The notes under the pieces: model-generated
Seen by the model: only the letters and a program-made list of their open reading frames with translations
Database searches by the model: none
What the model was told of the DNA's origin: nothing
Source: an uncultured Candidatus Actinomarina sp.
GTDB taxonomy: Bacteria; Actinomycetota; Acidimicrobiia; Actinomarinales; Actinomarinaceae
Assembly (NCBI GenBank): GCA_902610815.1
Contig: CACLXG010000001.1
Location: forward strand, 341,573-405,572
Direction: 5' to 3'
DNA: 64,000 nt
Made by a program: the position numbers and the translations under genes
Shown here: piece by piece, positions 14,523 to 49,772 of the stretch
Layout of the letters: the number at the start of each line of letters is the position of its first letter
How positions within the stretch are numbered: position 1 is the stretch's first letter

Positions 14523-14541
14523 GTATGTCATATATAGTATA

Positions 14542-14766
14542 TTAAGTGATACTTATAATAAAATAATATAAAATAAGCAGTCCTCCACCAAATGATCCAA
14601 TGAATCCCAAGCTACCAACTATGGGTTCTAATGATTTAAAAAATTTTGAATTAAAGTTTTCTAAGTATATATCAACTATCTTCCTGCTAAGTTGAAAAGA
14701 AATAAATCCATTGAAAAAAATATATACAAAACTTAAAATCGTAATCCAAGGGTTAGGAAAATTCAT
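14542..14766 (-). CDS. Hypothetical small membrane protein (74 aa)
   Basis: Two predicted hydrophobic helices. No recognisable motif, so the coding status is uncertain. Confidence 0.3.
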   Translation of the reverse strand: MNFPNPWITILSFVYIFFNGFISFQLSRKIVDIYLENFNSKFFKSLEPIVGSLGFIGSFGGGLLILYYFIISIT

Positions 14767-14789
14767 AATAAGGTAAAGTTAATATAATT

Positions 14790-15029
14790 ATGAGATTTAG
14801 CAACAAGACTCGGATTTTTATATACACTTCCGTAATTTTATTATCTAGTTATATTGGCTACCTTCTTGGAAATACATTTTGCATTATCTCTGATGAAGGG
14901 AGTTGTTTAACGAGTGTTTTAACTTATGTTGGTGTGATTAATGTATTCAATCTAATTGGTGTTTTTGTTTTGGTAAACTTATCTGAAAAATCAATAACAG
15001 AATGGAATCAAAACTTAGAAGAAGAATGA
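14790..15029 (+). CDS. Hypothetical small membrane protein (79 aa)
   Basis: Two predicted hydrophobic helices. It is divergent from the preceding small ORF and overlaps ltaE convergently by 22 nt. Confidence 0.3.
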   Translation: MRFSNKTRIFIYTSVILLSSYIGYLLGNTFCIISDEGSCLTSVLTYVGVINVFNLIGVFVLVNLSEKSITEWNQNLEEE

Positions 15030-17199: not shown

Positions 17200-17903
17200 C
17201 TAAAAATATTATCTATTGTTTTAAAAAAAATCTCTGGATTTGAATCTTTTAAAACATATATTTTTTCATAGTTCAATTTACTAGCAAAAAAAATTGGATT
17301 GTCCGCTTTCAAACATAAACTTAAATTTCCTCTTGGATGCTTAATTTGAGAAAACTGAAATTCTTTTTCGTCAAATGAATTTTTAGTGCCCATCCATTGA
17401 TTGATTCCAATTGAATACTTTTTCATTAATTTAAGTTTTTTTTCTGAGTTACCACCAATAAACAAATTGATATTGTTTTGTTTAAACTTATTTGAATCTA
17501 CTATTGCATTAATTATTTTTTCAATATCGTTGGAGAAATTTGGTCTTTTTTCAAATATATCATCACCCGTACCAATTCCTAATTTAAAATTTTTAATTTC
17601 TAGCAATTTATAAATGTATTCGTCAAATAACTTATCATATGATCTCGCATTAATATTTAATACACATAGTCCCAATCTAAATTGATCATCTACAACTTCG
17701 TTAAGTTTGTAGATTCCTTCAATAAATTCATAAACATCTAAATTTTTACCAGCAGGGTTTACTCCATGATCAAATAAATATACGGTATCAATGTCTATGG
17801 ACATTAATTTTTCTGTTTTTTCTTTAAAATTATTTTTGAAGAATTCTCCGGGAAGTAAAACAGAGTTAACTGGTTTCATTAAAAGCAAGTGCTGCAGCTC
17901 CAA
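17196..17903 (-). CDS. Hypothetical protein, possibly a compact luciferase-like monooxygenase (LLM)-related protein
   Basis: 235 aa. The segment NLFIGGNSEKKLKLMKKYSIGINQWMG resembles the conserved C-terminal 'iwiGGxg....aaryadgW' region of LLM/F420-dependent oxidoreductases. The protein is much shorter than typical LLMs. Confidence 0.3.
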   Translation of the reverse strand: MELQHLLLMKPVNSVLLPGEFFKNNFKEKTEKLMSIDIDTVYLFDHGVNPAGKNLDVYEFIEGIYKLNEVVDDQFRLGLCVLNINARSYDKLFDEYIYKLLEIKNFKLGIGTGDDIFEKRPNFSNDIEKIINAIVDSNKFKQNNINLFIGGNSEKKLKLMKKYSIGINQWMGTKNSFDEKEFQFSQIKHPRGNLSLCLKADNPIFFASKLNYEKIYVLKDSNPEIFFKTIDNIFR

Positions 17904-18780
17904 TTATTCCAGAATCTTCTCCTTGCGAAGCAATAAATATATCAGGAAAACTTCTAGATGGGAATTTATATCTATTCTTTATATCGTTCTGAATAAGCTC
18001 AACTAAATCAAATGGTTCAGACGACATAGTTCCACCTAGAACAAAAGCTTCATTATCAAATATTTCAAATAAACTTAATAGTCCATTTGATATGTTTTGA
18101 ATTATTTCATCTCGAGCAGCGGTTTCTGATTCTGTTAAGTTAAGTGTATTATCAAAAAGAACTGAACCAACATTTTTAGTAGCAAATATTTTGGCAAGTT
18201 CTGTATCTTGATCTTTCTGAGTTAGTTCTGTACACTTTCTTGTCCATACAGATGCAGCAACTGATGATTCAAAACTTCCCTTTTTTCCACTATCTCCTTC
18301 AACTTCTCTATCATTTGATGTAAGCATATGTCCAATCTCTCCTGCGTTTCCTCGTCCTCTTAACAATTTACCTTCAGAGATTATTCCTCCGCCAACTCCT
18401 GTACCAAAAGTCAACATTATCAAATTTGAATATTTGTCTTTGTAATTTAAAAAATACTCACAATAAGCTGCTACGTTACCATCATTATCTAAATGAAATT
18501 CATAATCTGTAAAATTTAATAGCTTTGAAAAATCAATATCAAATTGTAAGTGTGGACCATATAAATATTTGTTGTTAGCTGAATTTACATATCCTGGCAT
18601 AGCTACTGAAACTTTAGAAACATTTGGAAGATTATCTTGAATAATATTGGATAAAGAATCAATAAATTTCTCTTCATTGTGTGGAGTTGGTATCTTATCT
18701 TTTTTTAAAACTTCAAATGACTTATCAACAACACCATATTTTACGGTAGTTCCTCCAACATCAAAAGATAGACAATTCAT
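17866..18780 (-). CDS. ROK-family sugar kinase (glucokinase-like)
   Basis: 304 aa with the N-terminal ATPase phosphate-1 motif LSFDVGGTTVKYGVV and the GNAGEIGHM region typical of ROK kinases. Confidence 0.7.
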   Translation of the reverse strand: MNCLSFDVGGTTVKYGVVDKSFEVLKKDKIPTPHNEEKFIDSLSNIIQDNLPNVSKVSVAMPGYVNSANNKYLYGPHLQFDIDFSKLLNFTDYEFHLDNDGNVAAYCEYFLNYKDKYSNLIMLTFGTGVGGGIISEGKLLRGRGNAGEIGHMLTSNDREVEGDSGKKGSFESSVAASVWTRKCTELTQKDQDTELAKIFATKNVGSVLFDNTLNLTESETAARDEIIQNISNGLLSLFEIFDNEAFVLGGTMSSEPFDLVELIQNDIKNRYKFPSRSFPDIFIASQGEDSGIIGAAALAFNETS

Positions 18781-19547
18781 ATATAAATTGATGATAATTC
18801 TAAATACTGATTAGTTGCTCTAAAATAACTTACATTAATGCAACGTGTAGCACTTATCTTCCAATGCGAAGCTTGTGGTTGGTGTACATCACCAAATAAA
18901 GAATACTCTGGTTGATAATTCTCAATGTAATCTTTTAAGCTTCCCCAACCTTGTTCAGTTTTATTAGTGACAACATCAGTAACTAACTCTCTAACAAGTG
19001 GAGGTGCATGTGTACAGATTATATTTGAGTCTTTTAAGTTATACAGTTTTTTTGAAAATGTATCTTCGTCAATTTCTCCTCTTGCATTAATTGGTGTTGG
19101 AACTCCACCACCAGCAAAACCAATTTTTTTATTATCATATTCAACTATTAACCCATCAACATTTTTCACTGAATTACTTAAGTAAGTATTCATAATATCA
19201 ACATCGTCTACATTTCCTGGTATAAACCAAACTTCATACTTTTTAAGTACATGAAAAACATCTTCATATTGTTTGTTAATTGCACTCTGCATTTTTTTTG
19301 CAATTTTGTCTGGATCAGTTTTATATAACTCTCTCCACAATGTTTTTCTTTGATCAAATTTGTGTTCTTTTCTCAAATTAATCAATTTTATAACATTATC
19401 ATAACCAAAGACATCCATAGCAATTCCTTGTCCATCTCGGTAGTCAATCCAATTTATTAAATCTCCTAAAATAACTACAGGCCCCTTATTCTGTGGTAGT
19501 GATTTAAGATAATCTAACTGGTAGTGAACATCCGACACGAATATCAT
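18777..19547 (-). CDS. Metallophosphoesterase (calcineurin-like)
   Basis: 256 aa with N-terminal IFVSDVHYQ and VVILGDLINW metal-binding motifs. Confidence 0.6.
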   Translation of the reverse strand: MIFVSDVHYQLDYLKSLPQNKGPVVILGDLINWIDYRDGQGIAMDVFGYDNVIKLINLRKEHKFDQRKTLWRELYKTDPDKIAKKMQSAINKQYEDVFHVLKKYEVWFIPGNVDDVDIMNTYLSNSVKNVDGLIVEYDNKKIGFAGGGVPTPINARGEIDEDTFSKKLYNLKDSNIICTHAPPLVRELVTDVVTNKTEQGWGSLKDYIENYQPEYSLFGDVHQPQASHWKISATRCINVSYFRATNQYLELSSIYI

Positions 19548-29618: not shown

Positions 29619-31133
29619 TTGAAATTTGTAAAAAATCAACATCTTGTCATTTTAGATGTTGAAACAACTGGTATTAAAGCTGGTGTTGATAAAGTTATTG
29701 AACTTTATATGCTAAAACTATTTAATGAGGAGGTTTTAGATGAATATTATTCTAAATTTGATCCTCAAATAGAAATACCCCTCTTTATTTCAAACCTTAC
29801 CGGTATATATCCATGGCATGTAGAAAATTCTCCAAAAATTGAGAATGAAATAGAGAAAATAAAAAATTTCGTGGATGATTCTGTAATAATTGGTCACAAT
29901 TTAAGGTTTGATTTATCTTTCTTAAATTATGAATTGAACAAAAAAAACTTTAATGAATTAAATAATATGACACTGGATACATTAAATCTCTCAAGAGCGT
30001 TGCTGAGAACTAAAGTAAAAAATCATAAACTCGTAACCTTGAGTAAATATTTTAAAACAATTAATCAAAATGAACATAATTCCAAAGCAGATGTACTCAC
30101 AACTTATGAAGTATTTAAACACTTGTCATTATTTGATGAAATCAAAAATAATGAAAGTATTGAAAAAGTTAATAAATTTTTAAACAGTATTGATTCAAAT
30201 TTAAAAAATAAATTTAATTTACAAAATATCCCAACTTCACATGGTGTTTATGTATTTTTAAATAATAAAACTTTAAAGTATGTTGGTAAATCAAGTAATT
30301 TAAGAAATAGAGTCAATTCACATTTAAGCCACTCAAGGAGTTATAAATCAAATAAAATTGTAAATTCTTCAAATAACTTAAAGGTCATAAATCTACCTAA
30401 TGAACTCATTTCATTAATTGTTGAACAACGATTAATAAACAAATTTAAACCTCAACTAAATAGAAGTGGGCGAATACCAAGAAATATATACTGGATAAAA
30501 CTTAAAAGTAACAAATCAAATTTAGAAATTTCAAAAATTGAATTATCAAAAAATACAATTTTTCAAATTGGTCCTTTCTTGAGTTATTCAAAAGCTAAAA
30601 ATTTTAAAAATTTTTTAGATAATAGATTTGAAACAGTTAGATGTAAGAATAATAATTCAAGAAAAACAAAATGTGACATATCTATACTTTTAAATTCACA
30701 ATGTGCATGCATAGATTCATTTAATCTTGAAGAGTATAACTACAACTTAAGAAAAAAACTGGATTTATTTTTTAATGATACAAGTAAAGAAGTAAAGAGA
30801 TTAAACGATAAGTTAAATGCATACTCAAAAGAACAACATTTTGAGGAAGCCCAAAAAATCAAAAATTACATATCATTACTTCAAAATTTTCTTGAGTTCA
30901 ATAGCTTTAAAGAAAAAATAACTTCATTTGATAAACAGACTATTAAAATTTTAGAAAATTTAAACATAGAGATATCTAACACTAGAGTAAATCTTAAAAT
31001 TGAACTAAGTGATGAAGATATTGAGTTTTTAAAAATTAGTCCAAATAACGACACTATTATAAATTTTTATAGTGAACTTCTGTTAATTTTACGTTTCATT
31101 AGAAATAAAGAAGCTTATACAATAGGAAGATGA
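29619..31133 (+). CDS. DEDDh 3'-5' exonuclease (DnaQ/epsilon-like) fused to a GIY-YIG (UvrC/Cho-like) nuclease domain
   Basis: 504 aa. N-terminal Exo motifs are LVILDVETTG (Exo I), IIGHNLRFDLSFL (Exo II) and HNSKADVLTTYEVF (Exo III). A central GIY-YIG motif follows: HGVYVFLNNKTLKYVGKSSNLRNRVNSH. Confidence 0.7.
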   Translation: MKFVKNQHLVILDVETTGIKAGVDKVIELYMLKLFNEEVLDEYYSKFDPQIEIPLFISNLTGIYPWHVENSPKIENEIEKIKNFVDDSVIIGHNLRFDLSFLNYELNKKNFNELNNMTLDTLNLSRALLRTKVKNHKLVTLSKYFKTINQNEHNSKADVLTTYEVFKHLSLFDEIKNNESIEKVNKFLNSIDSNLKNKFNLQNIPTSHGVYVFLNNKTLKYVGKSSNLRNRVNSHLSHSRSYKSNKIVNSSNNLKVINLPNELISLIVEQRLINKFKPQLNRSGRIPRNIYWIKLKSNKSNLEISKIELSKNTIFQIGPFLSYSKAKNFKNFLDNRFETVRCKNNNSRKTKCDISILLNSQCACIDSFNLEEYNYNLRKKLDLFFNDTSKEVKRLNDKLNAYSKEQHFEEAQKIKNYISLLQNFLEFNSFKEKITSFDKQTIKILENLNIEISNTRVNLKIELSDEDIEFLKISPNNDTIINFYSELLLILRFIRNKEAYTIGR

Positions 31134-31723
31134 GTTTATTTTTCAAATCAAATAATTTATCCCTTGGATATGGAAATCAACTTGTTTTAAATAATTTAGA
31201 TATATCACTAAAAGTTTCAAATAATTACGAAATTATTGGAAAAAATGGTTCCGGAAAAACAACTTTAGTTATGTGTATAAGTAATAACTTTATTGGCAAT
31301 ACGTTCAATTCAAATATTGAAAGAGGAGAATGCTCTTTTATGGAGATTGGTTCTAATCCATCATTAATTCCAAAATTATCCCTTGTAGAAAATATAAAAT
31401 ACTTTCTTTACAAAGAAAATATTAATGAAAAGTTAATTATAGAAACACTTAATAAATATCAATTAAATGAATTTAAAGAAGATTTAATTGAGGAATTTTC
31501 AAGTGGAATGGTTAAACGAAGCGAATTGGCTATTGCAGATTTGAAAAAACCAGACGTTCTTTGTATTGACGAACCAAAAGTTTATTTAGATGAAAGTGGA
31601 ATACAGCTTTTATTAGATCTATTAAATTATCGAGAGACACAAAAGATTACTTCAATTTTATCAAGTCAAGAAAGCATAAACGCACTGTCCAATATAGAAA
31701 GAACTATAGATTTAAATGATTAA
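31130..31723 (+). CDS. ccmA: Cytochrome c biogenesis heme exporter ATPase CcmA-like (compact ABC ATPase)
   Basis: 197 aa with Walker A IGKNGSGKTTL, a degenerate signature FSSGMVKRSELA and Walker B LCIDEP. It is the first gene of the ccm cluster. Confidence 0.6.
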   Translation: MSLFFKSNNLSLGYGNQLVLNNLDISLKVSNNYEIIGKNGSGKTTLVMCISNNFIGNTFNSNIERGECSFMEIGSNPSLIPKLSLVENIKYFLYKENINEKLIIETLNKYQLNEFKEDLIEEFSSGMVKRSELAIADLKKPDVLCIDEPKVYLDESGIQLLLDLLNYRETQKITSILSSQESINALSNIERTIDLND

Positions 31724-32351
31724 GAAATACATCATTAAAAAGGAATTTAATTTGGAATTCAGAAATAATACCTCATTATTTTTAATCACACCAACTATGT
31801 GTGTTTTAATTATTGTATTTCCTATTCTTTCAGAAAATAGGTTTCGAGTAGAAAATGATATATTTGTCATTGTCCAGCTTTTATTTCTAATTATTTTTAC
31901 AACACTTTTTTCAATAAGGAACCCTATGGAAGAGCAAGCGCTTATCAAAGAATTAAATTTTGGAACAATAAAAAAAATAGATTACTTTTATAGTAAAACT
32001 ATTGCTGAGCTTGGAATTTTTTATCCTCAAATTATTCTTCTTTTAATTTTGTTTTCAGGTTTCACAAATACTTCTATTAACAATTCAATAATATATATTA
32101 TTTTCTCCGTTTTATTCTTTTGCTTGAATGCAATTATGGTAAATCTATTTTTTCAAATGTATACAAGTTTTAATAGTAGATTTGTACAATTTATTATAAT
32201 TGTTCCAATTTACATTGGGTTTGCAATATTAATTGCTCCAATATGGTTAGGTGTTAATCAAGAAATTAGTAATATTTATTTATTGATGCTTTTAGGAATA
32301 ACTATGATCATTTATTCATTTACTAACTTTTACATAAGGAAAACCCAATGA
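31716..32351 (+). CDS. ccmB: Heme exporter membrane protein CcmB-like
   Basis: 211 aa polytopic membrane protein between ccmA and ccmC. The call is positional plus topology. Confidence 0.5.
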   Translation: MIKKYIIKKEFNLEFRNNTSLFLITPTMCVLIIVFPILSENRFRVENDIFVIVQLLFLIIFTTLFSIRNPMEEQALIKELNFGTIKKIDYFYSKTIAELGIFYPQIILLLILFSGFTNTSINNSIIYIIFSVLFFCLNAIMVNLFFQMYTSFNSRFVQFIIIVPIYIGFAILIAPIWLGVNQEISNIYLLMLLGITMIIYSFTNFYIRKTQ

Positions 32352-33016
32352 TGCTTTATGGACCTCTTGTCGTGTGGCTTCTTGTGACCATCTTTGGTCC
32401 ATATGATGTCACACAAGGTGTATCGTCAAAATTACTTTATATTCATGTTCCAACAGTGTGGATAGCATACTTAGCCTACACTCTTACATTTGTGTATTCT
32501 GCACTATACTTCTTTTCTAAAAAATTTAAATACGACTCTTTAGCTGTTGCTAATGCGAAGTCTGGTGTGGTATTCACCATTGTTACATTGCTATCGGGTT
32601 CTTACTGGGGCAAACAAACATGGGGAACATGGTGGGTTTGGGGTGATGCTAGGCTAAATCTGACTGCAATTCTTTTATTAGTGTATTTGGGATATATTGC
32701 TTCAAGACAATTTAATAAAGATTTAGGAAAAACAGCTAAAAACTCATCGTTGATAGGAATTTTTGGAGTTGTTCAAATACCCATCCTCCATTTTAGTGTT
32801 ATTTGGTGGAGGTCTGTTCACCAACAAGCTAGCATTCTTAGCCAAGAAACTGTAGCCTCTGGAGACGCCCCTATGTCCTCTGACATACTAATTACTCTTT
32901 TACTAAGTGTGCTATTAGTGACTATTGTTCATACATTTCTCACAAAAAGATTCAGAATTTCAAATGATATGTCATGGGACAATTATTTAAATCCTAAATC
33001 AAGGGCTAAAATTTAA
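32348..33016 (+). CDS. ccmC: Heme exporter protein CcmC
   Basis: 222 aa membrane protein with the WWD domain (WGTWWVWGDARL) and a conserved His in TM regions. Confidence 0.85.
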   Translation: MMLYGPLVVWLLVTIFGPYDVTQGVSSKLLYIHVPTVWIAYLAYTLTFVYSALYFFSKKFKYDSLAVANAKSGVVFTIVTLLSGSYWGKQTWGTWWVWGDARLNLTAILLLVYLGYIASRQFNKDLGKTAKNSSLIGIFGVVQIPILHFSVIWWRSVHQQASILSQETVASGDAPMSSDILITLLLSVLLVTIVHTFLTKRFRISNDMSWDNYLNPKSRAKI

Positions 33017-33021
33017 ATAGA

Positions 33022-33423
33022 GTGAAAAAAAATTTTATTATTGTCCTTTTGGGCATTGGATTAATTATTTATGCAAGTTCAATTATTGCATCTAGAAATA
33101 CTATTTACTACTATACGACCTCAGAAACTCTGAATATTGAACTAGAGAATGAAGAAAGAATCAAATTAGGGGGTTTTGTAGTTGAGGGAACTATTGTTAA
33201 AGATGGTGGATTTACAAATTTTACAATAACTGATGGAAATGAAGACATTGAAATAATCTTTGATGGTTTTGTACCAGAATTATTTCAAGAAAATATGGGT
33301 GTGATTCTTGATGGGGTGTTTAGTAATGACACTTTTCTAGCAGATGATATGCTTGTTAAACACGACAACGAATATGTATCAAGCGATGGTGAAACATATA
33401 ACGTAGAAAATTATTCAGAATGA
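33022..33423 (+). CDS. ccmE: Cytochrome c-type biogenesis heme chaperone CcmE
   Basis: 133 aa with an N-terminal transmembrane anchor and OB-fold. The C-terminal heme-binding HxxxY motif is LVKHDNEYVS. Confidence 0.8.
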   Translation: MKKNFIIVLLGIGLIIYASSIIASRNTIYYYTTSETLNIELENEERIKLGGFVVEGTIVKDGGFTNFTITDGNEDIEIIFDGFVPELFQENMGVILDGVFSNDTFLADDMLVKHDNEYVSSDGETYNVENYSE

Positions 33424-35315
33424 TTTACAACACTGGAATTATTTTTAGCTGGATAAGCTTTGCCTTATTGGTAATTTTATTATTTAATAAGAAAGAAATC
33501 TTTACAGAAATACTCGTAAGATTAAACCTCTTTGTACAAGTTTTCTTATTTTGTTTACTGGAAATAGGATTATTTTTGAATGACTTTTCTATTTCTTATA
33601 TAGCAAACTATTCTGCTGAATCTACTCCTCCGTTATATAAGTTTGCTTCTTTATGGGGTTCCTTAGATGGATCTATACTTTTATGGAATCTATGTTTAAG
33701 TTTCTTTATGTATCTTTATTTAAAATCATATAAAGATCTTTCATCAGATATAGATATAAAAATTTTTTCATTAATTATGATCTTTTTTGTTGGATACACA
33801 GTTTTTAGCTCCTCTCCTTTTGCAGGTTGTATTGAACTTGCAGCTATAGGTTGTAATAATTCAAGTTTGTTACCTTTTCAGGAATTAGTAAGCAGTAACA
33901 TTGGGCGTGGTCCTAACCCTTTACTGCAAAATCATCCTCTAATGGCAATCCATCCACCAATGCTATACATAGGATATGTTGGGATGACAATGCCATTTGT
34001 TGCTGCAACAAGCAGGTTGTATTCAAAAAAACAAAATGCCAACGATTGGATAGAGGTTGCTGAAAAAACAACTTATATACCGTGGTTATTTCTAACAATC
34101 GGAATAACACTTGGTGCTGCCTGGTCATACGAAGTTTTAGGCTGGGGAGGATACTGGGCTTGGGATCCAGTTGAAAATGTCTCATTTATACCATGGCTTT
34201 TGGCAACAGCTTTTCTTCATTCAGCAAAAATACAAAAGTCTCAAAATACATTATTAAATTGGAATTACATATTGGTTGGCTTAATGTTTTTATCTACAAT
34301 ATTTGGTACTTTTGTGACAAGATCAGGTGTCTTAATTTCTGTACATGCATTCTCTAATGGGAATATTGGAACTTATCTATTATTTGGAATGATGCTTTTT
34401 GGAATTATTTTTATTGTTATTGGATCAAAGAATATTGAATATTTTTCAAACTCAAAAAAAATAGAAAATTGGTTCGGAAAAGCAGGGTTTTTTGTTTATA
34501 ACAATATTTTCTTATTTTCCTCTGCTCTAGTTATTTTTATCGGAACAATTTTTCCACTAATTTATGAAACGCTTTATGACAGGCAAATAACTATTGGTAG
34601 ATCTTATTACGATATTCTCGTTGGGCCTCTTTTAGTCATATTATTAGGGCTTATGATTTTCTCAATCAAGTTAACTATAAAAAATTTAAATATCAATAAA
34701 TGGTTTAAAGAAAATATGATTTTAATCAATAGCTCATTAGCAATAAGTATTCTTACTCTGCTTACATTTGAAAATTCATATATTTTGGTTGTTACTGTAG
34801 CAGTATCATTTATGTTAATTCTTATAACTGTTAGTAACTTATTTAAAAACTTCAGAAAGTCTAAAATCAATAAATCATACTGGACAGGCCAAATAGCACA
34901 TTTAGGCATTGCTATTTTTGCTTTTGGAATAATTTTGAATGTAAGTCAGAGTTACTCAACTGAAAAAGAAATCAATTCATTTGAAGAATTTAGCTTTAAC
35001 AATCAAACTTACTTTGTTTATGACTCAATTGAAGAAAGTTTTCCTGAAAAAAATGTAATAAAACTTCCAATTTCAAATAAAACTACCACTAAATTTACTT
35101 CTTTGAATATATTTAATAATTCTTCTCAACAAGCAATAAGCTCACCTGCAGTGTTTAGAACCTTTTTAAATGATGTATATATAACTGTAAAATTTATCGA
35201 TGAAAATAGTTATAAGCTTATTGTCAGAAATAATTATGGAATTTTTATAATGTGGATAGGATTGTTTGTTTCAAGTATTTCATTTGTACCAAGATTAAGT
35301 AAAAATGAAAAATAG
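33420..35315 (+). CDS. ccmF: Cytochrome c-type biogenesis heme lyase CcmF
   Basis: 631 aa polytopic membrane protein with the WWD domain (WGGYWAWDPVENVSFIPWL). Confidence 0.85.
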   Translation: MIYNTGIIFSWISFALLVILLFNKKEIFTEILVRLNLFVQVFLFCLLEIGLFLNDFSISYIANYSAESTPPLYKFASLWGSLDGSILLWNLCLSFFMYLYLKSYKDLSSDIDIKIFSLIMIFFVGYTVFSSSPFAGCIELAAIGCNNSSLLPFQELVSSNIGRGPNPLLQNHPLMAIHPPMLYIGYVGMTMPFVAATSRLYSKKQNANDWIEVAEKTTYIPWLFLTIGITLGAAWSYEVLGWGGYWAWDPVENVSFIPWLLATAFLHSAKIQKSQNTLLNWNYILVGLMFLSTIFGTFVTRSGVLISVHAFSNGNIGTYLLFGMMLFGIIFIVIGSKNIEYFSNSKKIENWFGKAGFFVYNNIFLFSSALVIFIGTIFPLIYETLYDRQITIGRSYYDILVGPLLVILLGLMIFSIKLTIKNLNINKWFKENMILINSSLAISILTLLTFENSYILVVTVAVSFMLILITVSNLFKNFRKSKINKSYWTGQIAHLGIAIFAFGIILNVSQSYSTEKEINSFEEFSFNNQTYFVYDSIEESFPEKNVIKLPISNKTTTKFTSLNIFNNSSQQAISSPAVFRTFLNDVYITVKFIDENSYKLIVRNNYGIFIMWIGLFVSSISFVPRLSKNEK

Positions 35316-35664
35316 ATATTTAACTCTTTTGCTTTTAGTTTTACTATTTACATTACCTAGTTTATTTCCAGATAATGAATCTAGATATGAACAGTGGAGT
35401 AAATCATTGCTGTGCCCAGTTTGTCAAGGTGAAACTATTTATGATTCTCCGTCCGAATATGCAGACGATATGGGTGCTATCTTGATTGAACAGATTAACG
35501 AAGGCTTAACTGATGATCAAATATATATATTTTGGGTATCAAGATATGGTGAAAGAATTATTACCAACCCAATAAATCGCAATTTAGAAATACTATTTAT
35601 TCCATTGACATTAGTTTTTGGGTTTGTTTTATTGTTTGTTAGGAAATTGTATGTTAAAAAATAA
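35305..35664 (+). CDS. ccmH: Cytochrome c-type biogenesis protein CcmH (CycL)
   Basis: 119 aa with an N-terminal signal/TM, an LCPVCQ (LRCxxC-type) redox motif and a C-terminal transmembrane segment. Confidence 0.75.
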   Translation: MKNRYLTLLLLVLLFTLPSLFPDNESRYEQWSKSLLCPVCQGETIYDSPSEYADDMGAILIEQINEGLTDDQIYIFWVSRYGERIITNPINRNLEILFIPLTLVFGFVLLFVRKLYVKK

Positions 35665-36187
35665 ATGGCTATATGCGGGTCTTTTCATATTTCTATTTCC
35701 ATTCTTTCTTTTAATAAATTTAAATGACAACGCCTCAGAAATTGCTAATCAAAACACTAATTTAGAAGATGTATCAAATGCTGAAATGGAAAAAGTTATA
35801 GAACTAAATCCAGATATATTTCCAATGAGAATTGCACTTGCTAACCGCTATTTCGAAGAATTTAATTACTCAAGTGCTCTTCCCCACTTCATGCACGTTG
35901 CACAAAATTCAGAAGATTTAGAATTAAAAAGTCTTGCTTTAGCTCAAATAGGATGGATGGTTCATGATTCAGGTGACACCCTAACTTCGCTTAATTATAT
36001 CGAAGAAGCTTTAGCTATTTCTCCTGAATCCTTACTAGCAAAAACTTATCTTGGAATTATTCTTATTCAACAAGAGGAAACCAGAAAAGAGGGGTATGAA
36101 ATATTAACATTCCTAAAGACCGATCCTACTTTATCTAATGAAGATCTAGAGATTATTCAAGAAATATTGTCGATATATGAAAATTAA
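35618..36187 (+). CDS. TPR-repeat protein, CcmI/CycH-like
   Basis: 189 aa with an N-terminal transmembrane segment followed by TPR-like repeats (ALANRYFEEFNYSSALPHF..., ALAQIGWMV...). Its position is as for CcmI, and it overlaps ccmH by 47 nt in another frame. Confidence 0.5.
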   Translation: MGLFYCLLGNCMLKNKWLYAGLFIFLFPFFLLINLNDNASEIANQNTNLEDVSNAEMEKVIELNPDIFPMRIALANRYFEEFNYSSALPHFMHVAQNSEDLELKSLALAQIGWMVHDSGDTLTSLNYIEEALAISPESLLAKTYLGIILIQQEETRKEGYEILTFLKTDPTLSNEDLEIIQEILSIYEN

Positions 36188-36665
36188 ACTTTTAATTATT
36201 TTATTATTGTTTTCATTTTGCAGTTCCGAAGTTGTTGACGAAGGAATATTTATTGATCCAGTAGATTTGAAAAATTTAAAAATATTGGAGACAAATGAGA
36301 ATATTGATTTATCTAATAATAATTTTTTAATTATAAACTACTGGGCATCCTGGTGTTTGGAGTGCATAGAGGAACATCCTTATCTCATTGAACTGTCAAA
36401 AACCAAAGGATTTGAAAATTCTGTATTTATGCTTTCTTTTCAAGACAGTAGAGAGAATGCTCTCAAATTTATAAACGAATATGGCGTTGGCAACATTCAG
36501 TACGTAGTTAATCAAAATAGTAAAATCGCAATTTACTCAGGTGTCTTTGGAGTGCCCGAAACACACATTGTAAAAAACGGAGAAGTAATAAAAAAATATA
36601 TTGGTCCAATATCAATAAATGATTTTCAAGAAATAATAAATAATTATTCACATCTAACCAATTAA
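36177..36665 (+). CDS. ccmG: Thiol:disulfide interchange protein CcmG/DsbE (thioredoxin-like)
   Basis: 162 aa with a signal/TM anchor and the WCxxC redox motif (YWASWCLECIEEHP). It is the last gene of the ccm cluster. Confidence 0.75.
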   Translation: MKIKLLIILLLFSFCSSEVVDEGIFIDPVDLKNLKILETNENIDLSNNNFLIINYWASWCLECIEEHPYLIELSKTKGFENSVFMLSFQDSRENALKFINEYGVGNIQYVVNQNSKIAIYSGVFGVPETHIVKNGEVIKKYIGPISINDFQEIINNYSHLTN

Positions 36666-36679
36666 GAATTATTATTATT

Positions 36680-37020
36680 TCTGTGAAATGGATAATCGCG
36701 ATTTATCGAGGAAAGTCCGGACTCCACAGAGTAATAGAGCTGGGTAACTCCCAGGCAAGTAATTGACGGAAAGTGCAACAGAAAACAAACCGCTTATCTT
36801 TGATAAGTAAGGGTGAAAAGGTGGTGTAAGAGACCACCAGTTGTTTAAGTGATTAAACAAGCTTGTAAACCCCTCTAGGAGCAATACTAAGAAGCAATTA
36901 GCTGGCTCGGCAAATAATTGCGGGTAAGTAGCTAGATATATTTGGTAACAAATATACAAGATGGATGATTATCGTATGTGCAAACATATACAGAATCCGG
37001 CTTATAGTTTCACAAAATCA
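36680..37020 (+). ncRNA. rnpB: RNase P RNA (bacterial type A, compact)
   Basis: P4 5' strand AGGAAAGTCCGGACTCCACAG; conserved GGTGAAAAGGTGGTGTAAGAGACCACCAG (P10-P12 region); P4 3' strand ACAGAATCCGGCTTAT. The 5' gtgaaa pairs with the 3' tttcac (P1/P2). The ends are approximate to within ~10 nt. Confidence 0.85.
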
Positions 37021-38056: not shown

Positions 38057-38800
38057 GTGATTAAGTATTTTCTGATTGGTTCAATTGGAGGATTACTTTC
38101 TGGAATATTAGGCATAGGAGGAGGAGTTGTTTTCGTTCCTCTTTTAACCTACTTAACAAAAACTGATTTTAAAACCAATACCGGTGTTTCCTCTTTAGCC
38201 GTTGTTTTTGTTGCAACAGGAAGTAGCATTACTTACATTTTTAATGATTTTTCAAGTGGAACAAATTTAGTATTTGAAATTTTAATAATAATTATTGGTG
38301 GAATAATTGGAGGATATTTTGGCAGTAAACTAACTGCAAAAATAAACACTCAATTACTTAAAAAATTATTTTCTATTTTACTGATAGCATCTGCATATAG
38401 AATAATCTTTTCAACAACTGTCACCGCAACTTATGAGGACAATATAATCTTATATTTTTTTATTGGTTTTGTGTCTGGGGTCGGATCTGGTCTTTTAGGT
38501 ATTGGTGGAGGAATAATTAGAATACCAATGTTAATTTTTTTCGGTGGGTTTGAACAAATTATTGCACAAGGGATTTCACTGTTGACAACGATTCCTACTG
38601 CTCTTACTGCTGCTGCAACTAAGATTCGTAAAGAAAAAAATTTACTTAAAATAGGTTTAATAGTTGGAATATTTGGTGTATTAGGTTCAGTAATTGGAGG
38701 TAGTTTAGCTTTCAGTATTATTCCTCGTGATACATTGAGTATTAGTTTTGGAATATTCCTAACTTTAGTTTCTGTAAATATGTTTATTTCTAATAAGTAA
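38057..38800 (+). CDS. TauE/SafE (DUF81) family anion exporter membrane protein
   Basis: 247 aa with two internal repeats carrying GIGGGVVFVPLL and GIGGGIIRIPML motifs. Confidence 0.7.
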   Translation: MIKYFLIGSIGGLLSGILGIGGGVVFVPLLTYLTKTDFKTNTGVSSLAVVFVATGSSITYIFNDFSSGTNLVFEILIIIIGGIIGGYFGSKLTAKINTQLLKKLFSILLIASAYRIIFSTTVTATYEDNIILYFFIGFVSGVGSGLLGIGGGIIRIPMLIFFGGFEQIIAQGISLLTTIPTALTAAATKIRKEKNLLKIGLIVGIFGVLGSVIGGSLAFSIIPRDTLSISFGIFLTLVSVNMFISNK

Positions 38801-39260
38801 ATTTACCGGTATTTATAAATTCTTTTAATATTTGAATATTTCTAAATTTAAAAAATAAATACAAAATCCCTATTCCCCCAAGTGCTATTTTGTAATTTTT
38901 AGTTAATGAAAATATATCTTCTGAATTTTGAAATAGTGGATAAAGAATTATGCTTTGGTTTAACCAAGTAAAGCTAAGTACTAAATAAAAAAAGGAACCT
39001 ATTGAGAATAATAGAGAATTTGCTCTAAATAAACTTCCTCTCTTTGTGGCAATCATAAAAATAAAAAATAAACTTACCGTGAAAAATATGCTGTGCCCTA
39101 TGTATTCATTTTGATTTGTAAGCCCAAAAGAATATAAAATTGAGTCAAATATAACCGGGAATAAACTACCAAAGATAATAAATCTTAAGTCAGCATTTTT
39201 ATCTTTAAATATGTAAAGAAAAAGATATATAGATAGACCGCTAGTCCAAAATAAAATCAT
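38790..39260 (-). CDS. Hypothetical polytopic membrane protein
   Basis: 156 aa with about four hydrophobic helices and no recognised motif. Confidence 0.35.
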   Translation of the reverse strand: MILFWTSGLSIYLFLYIFKDKNADLRFIIFGSLFPVIFDSILYSFGLTNQNEYIGHSIFFTVSLFFIFMIATKRGSLFRANSLLFSIGSFFYLVLSFTWLNQSIILYPLFQNSEDIFSLTKNYKIALGGIGILYLFFKFRNIQILKEFINTGKFTY

Positions 39261-39676
39261 GAATCTAAAGCAATATTAGCAAGTTCATCTGCTCGTTTAT
39301 TTTGCTCTCTTGGTACATGGTGGATTTCTAGATTATCAATTTTTTCTATTAAATCATTACATTGATTGTATAAATCCTTTAAATTTTTTGATTTAACTTT
39401 ATACTTTCCATTTACCTGCTGTACAACAAGTAAAGAATCTAAATAAATCTGTATATCTTTTAAATTATTTTTATCACAATAATCTAAAGCAGTTCTTAAA
39501 CCTTCATACTCAGCAACATTGTTTGTGGCTACACCAATCTTCTTTGCAATAGTATGCACTTCTTGTTCATCATTTTGAATTGAGATACCTATAGACGCTT
39601 CTCCCGGATTAGACCTAGAAGCACCATCACAATAGATTTTGTACATTAAATTACAACTCCCATGCAATATGGACAT
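39257..39676 (-). CDS. rnhA: Ribonuclease HI
   Basis: 139 aa with YCDGASRSNPGEASIG (catalytic Asp), TNNVAEYEGL (catalytic Glu) and HHVPREQNKRADELA. Confidence 0.85.
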   Translation of the reverse strand: MSILHGSCNLMYKIYCDGASRSNPGEASIGISIQNDEQEVHTIAKKIGVATNNVAEYEGLRTALDYCDKNNLKDIQIYLDSLLVVQQVNGKYKVKSKNLKDLYNQCNDLIEKIDNLEIHHVPREQNKRADELANIALDS

Positions 39677-40350
39677 TGTTGAAAACTAGAGTTCATAATT
39701 TCATACATTTCATTTGAAGTGAGATCAACACCACAGCAACCACATTGATTTTCCCTTTTGTAAGCAGCTATAACTTCAACACCTTTTGATTTTAAATCAT
39801 CATATAAGTCAATTATTTCTTTAGGAAAGCTACTTAATAATAATTTTTTTTCATCCTCATATTTACCTATTTTTAGATCAATGTCTCTCCATTCGCTTTG
39901 TAATGTTTTAGATAAGCTTAAGAGACTAGGTTTTAAGGTTTCTAATGATTGATCTATATAATTAATACTCTCTAACTCATCAGAATTTTCTTCATTTAGT
40001 TCAATTAAAGATTTTTCATAATCTAATAAATTTTTTTCAAAATTTTGCTTTTGTAAATTGTAATTTTGTAATTCAGATGCATCTAAGTTTGCGTTTAACT
40101 TTTCATTTATCGTTTCAATTTTCATCTGTGACTCTAAAATACTTTTTTCTATATGATTCTTTGTGTCAAAGTACAATTGCAATTCATTTACAATATTTTG
40201 TTTGTCGCTTTGTAGTTTTTTAAATTCTATCTCATGAGTTTTAAGCTCTTTTACTGTTGTACCTTCTGATTTTTCAGATATTAATTTGAATATTTCATTG
40301 TCTAATTCTTGTAATTCAATTAGGTTACTTAATAGAAATGGCTCATTCAT
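39646..40350 (-). CDS. Coiled-coil protein with C-terminal C4 zinc ribbon (COG1579-like)
   Basis: 234 aa with long coiled-coil segments and the C-terminal CGCCGVDL...CPYCMG zinc ribbon. Confidence 0.6.
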   Translation of the reverse strand: MNEPFLLSNLIELQELDNEIFKLISEKSEGTTVKELKTHEIEFKKLQSDKQNIVNELQLYFDTKNHIEKSILESQMKIETINEKLNANLDASELQNYNLQKQNFEKNLLDYEKSLIELNEENSDELESINYIDQSLETLKPSLLSLSKTLQSEWRDIDLKIGKYEDEKKLLLSSFPKEIIDLYDDLKSKGVEVIAAYKRENQCGCCGVDLTSNEMYEIMNSSFQQCPYCMGVVI

Positions 40351-44959: not shown

Positions 44960-47422
44960 ACCATTAACAGATAACAATAAAGAGTTCCTCTCAACCTCAT
45001 TTAACTCTCTACTTTTCATTTTCTTCATTAGTGTAATTTGAATTAAAGAAAGAGGATCAAGATAAGCGTTTCTAATATTTAGTGTATTTTTTAAAATTTT
45101 ATTATCATCCAGCAAGTTATTGTGTTGCTTTATTTTTTTGATACATTCCATCGCTAATTTTGATTCTTTTAGTATGTCGTTGTAAATCTTCATTTCTTCT
45201 TCATCGAGCAAATTATCAACATATAATTTTGCAATTTTTAAATCAGACTTTGCAAGTGTCATTTCAATATTGCTTATTAAATTTTGCATAAATTCTGAGT
45301 TTTTATATATTTTCCTAACGTGATTTATGCCATACTTCTGAATCATGCTGTCAAAAGCTAATCCAGAACCATACCAGCCAGTTAAGGTATTTCGAGTCTG
45401 TGCCCATCCAAAAACCCAAGGTATAGCTCTGTAGTTTTGAAGTGACTTAGTATTCTTTTTTCTTTTACTCGGTCTAGAACCAATGTTTAAGATCGATAGA
45501 AGCTTTACAGGTGTTCCATTTTCAAAATAGTTAATTAAGTTTTCATTAGTAAAGAATTTTCTGTATTTTTCATAGGATAAGTCAGATAATTCTTGAAAAA
45601 ACTTTTGATTATGTATTGTCGTTTTGAACTTGTTTCCAGATTCATTGATAAATGCAACCGAACCTAATTTAATATTTTCAAAACCAAGATATCCAGTTGA
45701 GTACTTATCAGAAATAACTTCTCCTTGTTCTGTGTATCTAATTTTCGAAGATATTGTCCCTTTTGGTTGGGAACTTATTGAATTATAAGTAGGACCTCCT
45801 CCTCTACTTATAGTTCCTCCTCTACCATGAAAAAAAGTGACATTTACGTTTTCTTTAACTCCTTCCTTGAATAAGTTTATTTGTGCATTAAAAACATTCC
45901 ATTGAGAAGAGATTATTCCACCATCTTTATTTGAATCAGAATATCCCAACATAATTTCTTGATTATTATTTTGATATTTTTTAATAAATTTTTTATATTC
46001 ATCATTTGAAAATAGATTTTGAAAAATCTTATTTGAACTTTGTAAATCATGAATCTCTTCGATTAAAGGAGTGATCGAAGGAATATTCTCTATGGGAATT
46101 AGTTTTTTACACAATTTAAATAAGTTAAGGATATCTTTATCAGACTTTGTCATTGATAAAATAATTGAATTGAAAACATTTTTACCATATATATTTTGTA
46201 ACTCTGGTATCTCTTTAAGTAAATCTTCAAAGTCTAAAAATTCTTTACCTGCCTTTGCTTCAACAATTGATGAATTCTGTCTTACATCTAACGAAACGCC
46301 GTGGAACTCAAATTTTTTAACAAAATCAATGAAGTTAACTAGTTTTTTGTTTTTTATCTTGTCTCCGAATATTTCGGTAACACTTTGCTGAAATAATAAA
46401 ATATCATCTAAAAATTCTTGATAATACTTATAACCTTTTTTGTTTATTTGAAAATTTTCAAGCCTATGAAATACTAGTGAAAGAAATATTCTAAATGGTT
46501 CATCAAAATTTACCCTTTTGTAATGTTTGTAGTCTTCAGGTAGTAGTTTTTTATAATCTTCTATTCTTTTTGTTAAGAGTTTTGGACTCTCTACAAAATC
46601 AGTTGAAATACTAAACTCTTCAGAAAATTGTATAATTGCCTCTTTGTAAATTTGTAAAATCTGATTTGAATAAATCTTTAAAGCTTCTTTTGTTACTTTT
46701 GTTGTTACATAAGGATTGCCATCTTTGTCAGCACCAACCCATGAGCCAAATTGAAGATTAAAGTTTTTTGCTTTAGATGCTATTTCTTCATCTTCAATGA
46801 TATTTTGGTAGACATCTTTATATAAAATATCTAAATAATAAATTAAAGATTTTACTTCATCAATTGGATTTGGTTTTGTAGATCTGACTTCTCTTGTATA
46901 CCAAAGCTGTGTAATCAAGGAGTTGATTTCATTCAAATCGTTTGAGTCATTAATTTTTATAATTTCAGCAATTTTATATATTTTTTTTAATGTAGACTGA
47001 CGAGAACTTTCAGTTGGATGTGCGGTAAATACAGGAACAAAACTTAGATTTTGCTTTGTTACTTTTTTAATAGATATTCTAGATTTTTCTAATGTATGCT
47101 CTCTAAATACTTGTTCAGCTATGTTTGATAGATAGAAAAAAATTGTAAATGCTTTTGTAATAATATAGATTTCATCTGGATTAAGAGAATTTAAAGTTTT
47201 AAAGATTGCATCTAAGTATTTATTATTTTTAGATTGTCTATATTTTTTTGAATTTAATCGAATATTTTCTACTATTTTCAAGTATTTATTGCCAGCTTGC
47301 TCTTTAATTACATTACCAAGTTCACTTCCTAGTAAATTTATTGTTTTTGATAAAGAATTAAAATTAGGATTTATTTTATATCCTTTCAACGTTTGTAATT
47401 GTAAAACTTCCAGTTGAATCAA
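44930..47422 (-). CDS. ppc: Phosphoenolpyruvate carboxylase
   Basis: 830 aa with the PEPC signatures VFTAHPTESSRQS, GYSDSNKDGG and FHGRGGTISRGGGP, and a C-terminal ...NTG. Confidence 0.9.
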   Translation of the reverse strand: MIQLEVLQLQTLKGYKINPNFNSLSKTINLLGSELGNVIKEQAGNKYLKIVENIRLNSKKYRQSKNNKYLDAIFKTLNSLNPDEIYIITKAFTIFFYLSNIAEQVFREHTLEKSRISIKKVTKQNLSFVPVFTAHPTESSRQSTLKKIYKIAEIIKINDSNDLNEINSLITQLWYTREVRSTKPNPIDEVKSLIYYLDILYKDVYQNIIEDEEIASKAKNFNLQFGSWVGADKDGNPYVTTKVTKEALKIYSNQILQIYKEAIIQFSEEFSISTDFVESPKLLTKRIEDYKKLLPEDYKHYKRVNFDEPFRIFLSLVFHRLENFQINKKGYKYYQEFLDDILLFQQSVTEIFGDKIKNKKLVNFIDFVKKFEFHGVSLDVRQNSSIVEAKAGKEFLDFEDLLKEIPELQNIYGKNVFNSIILSMTKSDKDILNLFKLCKKLIPIENIPSITPLIEEIHDLQSSNKIFQNLFSNDEYKKFIKKYQNNNQEIMLGYSDSNKDGGIISSQWNVFNAQINLFKEGVKENVNVTFFHGRGGTISRGGGPTYNSISSQPKGTISSKIRYTEQGEVISDKYSTGYLGFENIKLGSVAFINESGNKFKTTIHNQKFFQELSDLSYEKYRKFFTNENLINYFENGTPVKLLSILNIGSRPSKRKKNTKSLQNYRAIPWVFGWAQTRNTLTGWYGSGLAFDSMIQKYGINHVRKIYKNSEFMQNLISNIEMTLAKSDLKIAKLYVDNLLDEEEMKIYNDILKESKLAMECIKKIKQHNNLLDDNKILKNTLNIRNAYLDPLSLIQITLMKKMKSRELNEVERNSLLLSVNGLAAGLRNTG

Positions 47423-48638
47423 ATATTAAAGATGTTATTTCGTTGAAATTTATATTTTGAAAATCGGAGTGAGGAGTGTGAATCAAAATTAGATCATAAT
47501 TTGAAAAGTTTTTTATATTTACTTCTTTTAAAATAGAAGTTTTGTTGACTATAAGCTCTTCGACAAATGGGTCATAAAAAGATACATCTGCACTCTTTTC
47601 TATAAGTGCCTGAACAATATCAATTGCTGGAGACTCTCTTGTGTCACTAATATCTTTTTTGTAAGCAACACCTAGTATTAATATTTTTGAATTCTTTAAA
47701 AGTATCTCTTTTTTATTCATTAACTCACTAACTCTTGAAACGACATAGTTAGGCATTGAGTTGTTTATTTCTTGAGCTAATTCTACAAATCGAACTGGTT
47801 GGCCAATCTGTCTTGTTTTAAATGATAAGTATTTTGGGTCAATAGGAATACAGTGTCCACCAACACCAGGACCTGGCCTAAATGACTGAAAACCAAATGG
47901 TTTTGTCTTTGCAGCTTCAACAACCTCCCAAATATCAATGTCTAACATGTTTGATAAAATAGCCAACTCATTAACCATCGCAATATTTACTTGCCTATAT
48001 GTATTTTCAATTAACTTAACCATTTCAGCTTCTCTTGTTCCAGAAACTTCTATAACTTCATCAATAATTGATTTATAAAATTTCGATATTTTTTCTAATG
48101 ACTTTTTGTTTATACCACTAACAATTTTTGGAGTATTTTTGAATGTCCACTCTTTATTTCCAGGATCAATTCGTTCAGGTGAATATCCCAATAAAAAATC
48201 TTCTCCAGCTTTTAAGTTTGAAATATTTTCAAGGATTGGCTGAACTATTTCTATAGTTGTCCCTGGATATGTAGTAGATTCCAAAATTACAATTTGACCT
48301 TTTTTTAAATTTTCTCCAATACTTTTTGAAGCAGCTTCTACATAGCTTAAGTCTGGCTGGTAGTCAGTTAATGGTGTAGGAACACTTATTACTATATGTT
48401 CACTGTCACCTAAAACATTTGAATCCGAAGTAAATGATAATTCTTCTGAAAGTGCATCACTTAAAGCTTTATCTGAAACATCCTCAACGTGGGATACAGC
48501 GTTATTTAGGTTTGATATTACAGAGTCATTTGTGTCATAACCAGCAACTTTCAAGGTATTACTCGCCGCTTCAACCGCTAATGGTAGCCCAACATATCCA
48601 AGACCAATTACCGCAAGATCGTATTTAAATTCACTCAT
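47376..48638 (-). CDS. Nucleotide-sugar dehydrogenase (UDP-N-acetyl-D-mannosamine/-glucosamine 6-dehydrogenase family, WecC/WbpA-like)
   Basis: 420 aa with an N-terminal NAD Rossmann motif (VIGLGYVGLPLAVE) and the catalytic Cys region (GVGGHCIPIDP). The adjacent wecB suggests a UDP-ManNAcA pathway. Confidence 0.75.
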   Translation of the reverse strand: MSEFKYDLAVIGLGYVGLPLAVEAASNTLKVAGYDTNDSVISNLNNAVSHVEDVSDKALSDALSEELSFTSDSNVLGDSEHIVISVPTPLTDYQPDLSYVEAASKSIGENLKKGQIVILESTTYPGTTIEIVQPILENISNLKAGEDFLLGYSPERIDPGNKEWTFKNTPKIVSGINKKSLEKISKFYKSIIDEVIEVSGTREAEMVKLIENTYRQVNIAMVNELAILSNMLDIDIWEVVEAAKTKPFGFQSFRPGPGVGGHCIPIDPKYLSFKTRQIGQPVRFVELAQEINNSMPNYVVSRVSELMNKKEILLKNSKILILGVAYKKDISDTRESPAIDIVQALIEKSADVSFYDPFVEELIVNKTSILKEVNIKNFSNYDLILIHTPHSDFQNINFNEITSLIFDSTGSFTITNVERI

Positions 48639-48640
48639 AT

Positions 48641-49720: not shown

Positions 49721-49772
49721 TACTTTATGATTTTAGTGATGAAATAGTTATTAATGTACAACTATCATTGAA

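Follow-up and report, generated by a model that had tools for sequence, protein, structure and literature searches.

A probably native System I (Ccm) cytochrome c maturation operon in a Candidatus Actinomarinales genome

Results

Locus and gene content

We analyzed a stretch of 64,000 nucleotides (nt; hereafter the window) from an uncultured Candidatus Actinomarina sp. (GenBank assembly GCA_902610815.1, contig CACLXG010000001.1, forward-strand positions 341,573 to 405,572) and focused on a System I (Ccm) cytochrome c maturation gene cluster at window positions 31130-36665. Eight open reading frames (ORFs), in the order ccmA-B-C-E-F-H-I-G, lie tightly packed on one strand and were assigned to families by Pfam and NCBIfam scans (Table 1). 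Seven of the junctions of these ORFs are overlaps of 4-47 nt (4-14 nt with the 35651 start of ccmI), while the eighth, between ccmC and ccmE, is a gap of 5 nt. The shorter, 178-residue version of the ccmI product is the one that the gene caller chose on Tara scaffolds.

Table 1. Genes of the ccm cluster in the window, with strand, product length in amino acids (aa), and the matches or position on which each assignment rests (E, expect value; TM, transmembrane; ABC, ATP-binding cassette; TPR, tetratricopeptide repeat)
Gene	Coordinates	Strand	Length	Assignment	Basis
ccmA	31130..31723	+	197 aa	ABC ATPase	PF00005, E 1.3e-16
ccmB	31716..32351	+	211 aa	putative highly divergent six-TM permease subunit	position between ccmA and ccmC
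ccmC	32348..33016	+	222 aa	heme-handling WWD protein	PF01578, E 7.8e-29; TIGR01191, 146 bits
ccmE	33022..33423	+	133 aa	membrane-anchored heme chaperone	PF03100, E 4.5e-22
ccmF	33420..35315	+	631 aa	holocytochrome c synthase core	PF01578 and PF16327
ccmH	35305..35664	+	119 aa	thiol-redox partner of CcmF	PF03918, E 1.4e-19
ccmI-like	35651..36187	+	178 aa from ATG at 35651; 189 aa from upstream TTG at 35618	membrane-anchored TPR protein	
ccmG (DsbE)	36177..36665	+	162 aa	membrane-anchored thioredoxin-fold reductase	TIGR00385, 82.5 bits; PF08534

Heme-handling and ligation proteins

Motif residues and TM-like segments were located on the window translations, and the motifs were aligned to solved homologues. 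A sequence-only reading of this DNA had already named the locus a System I apparatus from the WWD domains of CcmC and CcmF, the HxxxY motif of CcmE, LCPVCQ in CcmH, and WCLEC in CcmG, and all of these motifs were found in alignment with solved Ccm structures. In CcmC, H33, the WWD motif at residues 92-103 (WGTWWVWGDARL), and H148 match H60, the WWD motif, and H184 of Escherichia coli CcmC (7F02_C, E 2.3e-29). CcmE has an N-terminal TM segment at residues 5-23 and the heme motif H114-D-N-E-Y118, in which KHDNEY stands opposite KHDENY of E. coli CcmE (8CE8_E). The WWD motif of CcmF at residues 242-253 (WGGYWAWDPVEN) was aligned with that of Thermus thermophilus CcmF (6ZMQ, E 7.4e-67), and H178, H267, H309, and H494 occupy the four columns that hold histidine in at least 90% of 70 CcmF sequences.

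CcmH carries its two cysteines (C37 and C40) in LLCPVCQ, opposite LRCPKCQ of E. coli CcmH (2KW0), and has TM-like segments at residues 5-23 and, C-terminally, 94-112. CcmG carries WCLEC (C60 and C63) and GVPET at residues 125-129 (within GVFGVPET), both aligned with the CycY structure 1KNG; this Bradyrhizobium CycY/CcmG protein is also its best solved match (E 2.2e-18). The ORF in the ccmI position shows an N-terminal TM segment and weak TPR matches (PF07719, PF24575), and 23 loci have a homologue of it between ccmH and ccmG; from its position and TPR content we infer that it may act as the apocytochrome chaperone. CcmC and CcmF scored 29-45 bits on the CcsB model vs 146-299 bits on Ccm models. 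In IMG, members of the same 90%-identity clusters bear names such as "heme exporter protein C" and "cytochrome c-type biogenesis protein CcmE", so the ccm genes are routinely recognized by annotation pipelines.

Relatives, host, and distribution

To place the cluster, CcmF was used to scan one genome per GTDB species, and the 80 best loci were taken, with the labels of metagenome-assembled genomes (MAGs) kept as deposited. The top relatives were OCS155 cluster bacterium AG-333-G23 (64% identity) and Ca. Actinomarina sp. AG-313-C18 (63%), both of them single-cell genomes (loci L001 and L002). In both, the eight ccm genes occupy an identical chromosomal position, inside a 22-kb syntenic stretch. 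Over 24 genes in a row, from ilvB through the peptidase past MmpL (ilvBNC-leuAB-...-ccm-LLM-TauE-...-NIF3-MmpL-peptidase), the window is collinear with both, the Ilv and Leu proteins being 81-86% identical, the Ccm proteins 50-82%, and CcmC itself 79-82%. Near-identical copies of the locus were observed on Tara Oceans scaffolds, reached through a near-identical CcmE, and the 90%-identity clusters of CcmC and CcmE contain 673 and 610 member sequences, respectively (ENA, JGI, Logan, and NCBI assemblies). The contig index held no exact matches to the window CcmF and CcmB products.

The host is a member of Ca. Actinomarinales (the OM1/OCS155 marine clade; Acidimicrobiia in GTDB), as its closest genomes, guanine-plus-cytosine (GC) content of 0.30, overlapping genes, and synteny demonstrate. 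This order has been described with ~32.5% GC, the lowest among Actinobacteria, a median spacer of 2 bp, and a genome of ~1.1 Mb, and is placed as order TMED189 in class Acidimicrobiia by GTDB (PMC7771536); NCBI places it under Actinomycetes. The window contains no ribosomal marker genes. It does contain the context markers from which the sequence-only reading had proposed an actinobacterial genome, a proposal that the single-cell relatives confirm. In the division and cell wall (dcw) cluster, the N-terminus of ftsZ directly follows ftsQ and ftsA is absent; the DUF3040 gene precedes mraZ, from which genes for an HNH endonuclease and a MerR regulator separate it; and MmpL and LLM genes are encoded elsewhere in the window.

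Composition and constraint were then evaluated across the cluster. Its GC content is 0.292 vs 0.302 for the window, GC at third codon positions is 0.16-0.29 in ccm genes vs 0.14-0.21 in flanking genes, and the tetranucleotide correlation between the cluster and the rest of the window is 0.983, while other 5.5-kb chunks range over 0.941-0.991. The flanks are housekeeping in character (ilv/leu, rRNA methylase, exonuclease, RNase P RNA), and no mobile-element genes were found in the scanned flanks beside the cluster. The operon is thus not foreign to the host genome, in line with the earlier view that it is no recent insertion. Against the Tara variants, all eight ccm genes showed no indels and nonsynonymous-to-synonymous rate ratios (dN/dS) of 0.05-0.19, much like the housekeeping genes beside them, and all eight are under purifying selection.

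In the set of the 80 best CcmF loci, 50 bear the label Actinomycetota, Acidimicrobiia, or Actinomycetes. The ccmF-H-I-G order was observed in 23 loci. Among them are the isolates Tersicoccus phoenicis and Haloechinothrix sp., a genome of Microthrixaceae, many MAGs of Acidimicrobiia, and one of a Pseudonocardia sp.; ccmA-B-C-D-E lies upstream in most loci of this type. Amycolatopsis ultiminotia has F-H-G with no CcmI match. The order F-G-H, also with no CcmI match, was found in an Acidimicrobiales group (Iamia, Poriferisodalis, and others), Gemmatimonadota, Deinococcales, and Proteobacteria. Two ccm cluster types, C-D-E-F-H-I-G and F-G-H, thus occur within Actinomycetota in the CcmF tree of loci L001-L080, Amycolatopsis belonging to the first. 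Two MAGs, labelled Gemmatimonadales (L014) and Burkholderiales (L072), appear misplaced relative to their labels in the same tree.

These results bear on the claim that gave the cluster its interest, namely that a System I operon is anomalous in an actinobacterial lineage of System II users. The claim falls, because close relatives routinely carry ccm genes: the two nearest species have them at the same site, and most of the best CcmF loci bear labels of the phylum. The premise holds for model Actinomycetes. Corynebacterium glutamicum uses System II (PMC9145763), and in Mycobacterium tuberculosis the thioredoxin-like protein CcsX serves cytochrome c maturation (PMC3781833). It does not extend phylum-wide; System II is the pathway of model Actinomycetes and not the rule for the phylum. 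Among the 59 window ORFs scanned with Pfam, no ResB (PF05140) or CcsA/ResC families were found, three ORFs at 60968-63244 lying outside the scan. We found no discussion of System I in Acidimicrobiia or Actinomarinales in the open-access literature, and no mention of a ccm operon in the open-access papers on Actinomarinales that we checked.

A trimmed heme-release module

The three components associated with heme release, CcmA, CcmB, and CcmD, are where the cluster departs from its relatives. CcmA retains Walker A (GKNGSGKTT, 37-45), the ABC signature (FSSGMVKR, 123-130), Walker B (VLCIDEP, 143-149), and an intact D-loop. Its shortness, which had been noted before, results from a deletion of 16 residues between Walker A and the Q-loop. 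The H-loop histidine is replaced by glutamine (LSSQE, 177-181), and this replacement and the deletion are shared by all six Actinomarinales-type CcmA sequences (the window, L001, L002, and L081-L083). In an alignment of CcmA from 20 relatives, the H-loop reads VSHD or similar in 18 and AAHE in one; no conclusion draws on the E. coli row of this alignment. The ABC signature had been called degenerate by the sequence-only reading. The SxGM form is real, but it is not peculiar to this genome, being common to all 20 non-E. coli CcmA sequences aligned. Judged from this alignment, the unusual feature of the predicted ATPase is the H-loop substitution, to which the sequence-only reading did not refer, and not the clade-wide signature. 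NCBIfam ranked a lantibiotic-protection ABC model (TIGR03740, 88 bits) first and the CcmA models TIGR01189 and NF010061 (63 bits) second and third, all sub-cut-off. The dN/dS of CcmA is 0.13-0.19.

The ORF in the ccmB position had no Pfam or NCBIfam match, and neither phmmer nor a profile hmmsearch against PDB sequences returned a match. It has six TM-like segments, the number reported for CcmB (PMC9616876). When the window CcmB family was compared by hhalign with a profile of bona fide CcmB, built from the 23 ORFs that occupy the ccmB position in related loci (22 with a PF03379 match), the two aligned over 162 collinear columns with E 9.3e-6 and a probability of 83%; reversed and column-shuffled controls gave E 0.11-0.76. 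Weaker comparisons had preceded this one (E 0.03-0.8 with a hidden Markov model (HMM) of the relatives' CcmB, E 0.026 in a three-sequence hhalign), and it was the addition of a 26-29%-identical family member, P0165, that brought hhalign to the lower value. A phmmer search against 1.84 billion representatives found 27 matches, all in one narrow family. The AlphaFold2 model (pLDDT 44, pTM 0.28), made from a shallow alignment with at least 92% identity, was unusable. With a dN/dS of 0.07-0.10, the ORF is best read as a putative, strongly diverged CcmB that is recognizable only by profile-profile comparison. We also noted a public protein of 219 aa (P0159), probably a deletion variant or an assembly chimera, that fuses the first ~90 residues of an Actinomarinales CcmB with the C-terminal half of CcmA.

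The missing ccmD, also remarked on in the sequence-only reading, is a feature of the order. Of 55 loci with adjacent ccmC and ccmE, 53 have a single-TM CcmD ORF of 34-56 aa between them, and it is missing only in Actinomarinales. An HMM built from 35 of these ORFs recovered all 18 held-out loci at E <=4e-6. Only 5-6 nt separate ccmC from ccmE in the window, L001, L002, and L081-L083, and none of the intergenic gaps of the window contains a small ORF that could be a CcmD candidate. The widest of them (485 nt, 14523-15007) holds two opposite-strand ORFs of 74 and 79 aa with TM-like segments, neither of them CcmD-like. E. coli CcmC Met118 has been reported to co-evolve with CcmD Tyr17 (PMC9616876); the equivalent residue is Thr in Actinomarinales, as in many CcmD-containing clusters, and is uninformative on CcmD loss.

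Discussion

We consider, with a probability of roughly 0.88, that the cluster is a System I (Ccm) operon for cytochrome c maturation, native to its Ca. Actinomarinales host and inherited vertically. Because relatives carry the same operon, it is an ordinary lineage trait of Acidimicrobiia and a subset of Actinomycetes, with no anomaly. The Actinomarinales version appears to be streamlined, with ccmD lost from the cluster, CcmA shortened and bearing an H-loop Gln, and the putative CcmB strongly diverged, a pattern that fits genome streamlining.

Several observations weigh against this interpretation. The bit scores of CcmA, CcmC, and CcmF lie under the NCBIfam trusted cut-offs, which is expected because a 30%-GC genome is far from the seed sequences. 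In the CcmF tree, a crude neighbor-joining one, Actinomarinales sit on a long branch at the midpoint root, and the tree gives them no exact sister group; we treated the long branch as a long-branch or composition artefact, and the tie of the order to the Acidimicrobiia F-H-I-G clade rests on gene order and best-match ranking. No CxxCH c-type cytochrome is encoded in the 64-kb window, so the substrate is missing from it. The glutamine in the CcmA H-loop also counts here, as loss of the H-loop histidine cripples hydrolysis in other ABC proteins. Finally, the CcmD HMM had no match in the window, L001, or L002 (best E 1.9), and E. coli requires CcmD for normal release of holo-CcmE (PMC3601427).

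The observations on CcmA and CcmD lead to the alternative that deserves the most attention, in which CcmA, CcmB, and CcmD, as the heme-release module, are decaying or act in a different way. Holo-CcmE would then be freed without CcmD and with ATP hydrolysis low or absent, or the ABC module would have acquired another role in heme handling, in a lineage for which heme auxotrophs have been reported. The absence of CcmD from Actinomarinales alone, the H-loop Gln and deletion throughout the Actinomarinales-type CcmA sequences, a CcmB past Pfam detection, and a between-genera identity of 50-59% for CcmA and CcmB vs 79-82% for CcmC all speak for it. However, selection on ccmA and ccmB is purifying (dN/dS 0.07-0.19), Walker A, Walker B, and the D-loop are intact, and the two proteins have diverged no further than CcmG, CcmI, or neighbouring non-core genes (50-55%). 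Plant mitochondria, moreover, run System I with no identified CcmD (PMC10879542), and ccmD is tiny and could sit elsewhere in the genome. Heme supply speaks for the alternative: some Actinomarinales subclades have been reported without heme biosynthesis (bioRxiv 10.1101/2021.01.11.426183), and System I is said to have the advantage where heme is scarce (PMC9145763). Both points also make the retention of System I in a ~1-Mb genome physiologically plausible. On balance, we regard an altered module as unlikely. A specific form of it would be a minimal System I, in which Actinomarinales lack CcmD genome-wide and a CcmA2B2 with H-loop Gln, truncation, and a diverged permease releases holo-CcmE with little or altered ATP hydrolysis; we hold this only as a tentative, rather doubtful proposal.

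The remaining explanations concern the origin or identity of the genes, and all are far less credible. Horizontal acquisition of a System I island from a Gram-negative donor by a System II lineage would account for the contrast with model Actinomycetes (PMC9145763; PMC3781833), for the two distinct CcmF clades within Acidimicrobiia, and for Gemmatimonadota sequences that are nearly as similar (31-33%). On these grounds, a transfer may have taken place at some early point in the evolution of the phylum. For this cluster, however, acquisition is very improbable, given that three genera-level lineages of Actinomarinales, syntenic over 22 kb, have it at one site and in one gene order, that its composition is indistinguishable from the host, and that its flanks are free of mobile-element genes; the nearest homologues outside the order are moreover Acidimicrobiia and Actinomycetota with F-H-I-G, while Gemmatimonadota and Proteobacteria have F-G-H and no CcmI match. 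Still less probable is that CcmF and CcmH, in place of a general cytochrome c synthase, are an NrfE/NrfF-type lyase dedicated to one special heme site (for instance CxxCK in the nitrite reductase NrfA). NCBIfam does report matches to NrfE (TIGR03145, 283 bits; NF007691) and NrfF (TIGR03147), but the generic CcmF/NrfE model scores higher (TIGR00353, 299 bits), with all of them far under cut-offs. The genes also share one operon with ccmABCE and ccmG, the cluster has a single CcmF, and no nrfA-like or multiheme gene lies in the 64-kb window. We give almost no credence to a mis-binned, non-actinobacterial contig that would pose no taxonomic question at all. A GC content of 30% is far from that of typical Actinobacteria, and several MAG labels among the CcmF matches are inconsistent, such as the "Gemmatimonadales" MAG inside the Acidimicrobiia clade; yet the closest relatives are single-amplified genomes (AG-333-G23 and AG-313-C18) and not bins, they are syntenic over 22 kb, a low GC and short spacers are what Actinomarinales are known for (PMC7771536), and the dcw cluster runs from ftsQ to ftsZ without ftsA, with DUF3040 upstream of mraZ.

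If the cluster is a native System I operon, its operation can be sketched from the E. coli, Rhodobacter, and Thermus systems, the window itself contributing the presence of the required residues and purifying selection. The WWD/His site of CcmC would bind heme b at the outer membrane face and pass heme to His114 of CcmE, after which the CcmA2B2 ABC module would free holo-CcmE, a step that in E. coli needs ATP hydrolysis and CcmD (PMC3601427; PMC9616876). CcmF, CcmH, and the TPR protein CcmI would then take the heme from CcmE and form the two thioether bonds to the CxxCH of the apocytochrome, CcmF using its WWD site, two external histidines, and two membrane histidines for a heme b of its own. 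CcmG would supply reducing power by holding the relevant cysteines reduced. A membrane anchor is present in each of CcmE, CcmG, CcmH, and CcmI, which suits a cell without an outer-membrane-bounded periplasm.

The finding itself is ordinary biology with minor lineage-specific trimming. It does correct a textbook shortcut, in that System I C-D-E-F-H-I-G operons are common in Acidimicrobiia and present in some cultured Actinomycetes, and for this reason a ccm gene in an Actinomycetota genome should not be taken by annotators for a contaminant or a transferred gene. Actinomarinales are among the smallest free-living cells. Their version of the operon is abundant in the surface ocean and is a naturally trimmed System I (no CcmD, altered CcmA), which could interest students of the heme-release step or of heme economy in streamlined plankton. 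Should the minimal form outlined above be true, it would offer a natural experiment on which parts of heme release are dispensable and an example of System I kept for function at very low heme supply.

Neighbouring genes and other features of the window

Several features outside the cluster were observed. The gene directly 5' of ccmA (29619-31133, forward strand) encodes a 504-aa fusion of RNase_T exonuclease, GIY-YIG, and UVR domains, and the same gene occurs on Tara scaffolds; its counterpart in the two Actinomarina/OCS155 single-cell genomes (L001 7196-7693; L002 7197-7694) is a 165-aa exonuclease domain only. Immediately 3' of ccmG lies a bacterial RNase P RNA of class A (RF00010, 277 bits; 36680-37020, forward strand), and a listed 94-aa ORF that overlaps it (36675-36959, reverse strand) is spurious. 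At the head of the dcw cluster, the HNH endonuclease ORF (169 aa) and the MerR-family regulator (163 aa) between mraZ and the DUF3040 gene span 12521-13546 on the reverse strand.

Five conserved ORFs had no Pfam match at E 1e-5 (38790-39260, 39646-40350, 17196-17903, 18777-19547, and 50721-51947), and the first two of these are conserved at 40-49% identity in both single-cell genomes (L001, L002). A block of polysaccharide and cell-envelope genes, with GC down to 0.26, extends over 47376-63244 and encodes, among others, a UDP-glucose dehydrogenase, two UDP-GlcNAc 2-epimerases, GT1/GT4 glycosyltransferases, Wzy_C-like and flippase-like proteins, an asparagine synthase, and a sugar transferase. 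It is probably the flexible genomic island fGI1 described for Actinomarinales (PMC7771536).

Comparison with known systems

The cluster shares its protein families with the System I of E. coli, Rhodobacter capsulatus, and T. thermophilus, and also their catalytic residues: the WWD and two histidines of CcmC, HxxxY of CcmE, the WWD and four histidines of CcmF, CxxC of CcmH, and CxxC and the cis-Pro motif of CcmG. As in Rhodobacter, CcmH and CcmI are separate. Unlike these model systems, it has no CcmD, a CcmA of 197 aa with a 16-residue deletion and H-loop Gln, a putative CcmB seen only by profile-profile comparison, and the order E-F-H-I-G in place of E-F-G-H. Its host is presumably a monoderm actinobacterium in which all components with soluble domains are membrane-anchored. 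Outside the order, the closest systems are the ccmABCDEFHIG clusters of other Acidimicrobiia and some Actinomycetes (30-46% identity per protein), which have the same gene order, including ccmH-ccmI-ccmG, and the SxGM signature in CcmA, whereas they keep a CcmD of 34-56 aa, the H-loop His in CcmA, and a CcmB that matches PF03379, and are GC-rich.

A precedent for a CcmD-less System I is offered by plant mitochondria, which have CCMA, B, C, E, F, and H with no identified CcmD (PMC10879542); unlike the window cluster, this organellar system has no CcmG or CcmI and a split CcmF. System I* of Archaea and Desulfovibrio is also a reduced System I variant, with Cys instead of His in CcmE and no CcmH (PMC3601427), and the window cluster is ruled out as a System I* by CcmE His114 and the presence of CcmH. 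It does not belong with the dedicated NrfEFG lyases either, its genes being embedded in ccmABCE...G and the NrfE model scoring under the generic one. System II (ResB/CcsB and ResC/CcsA, with CcdA and ResA/CcsX), found in model Actinomycetes and Bacillota, yields the same end product, and the WWD domain of its CcsA shares PF01578 with CcmC and CcmF.

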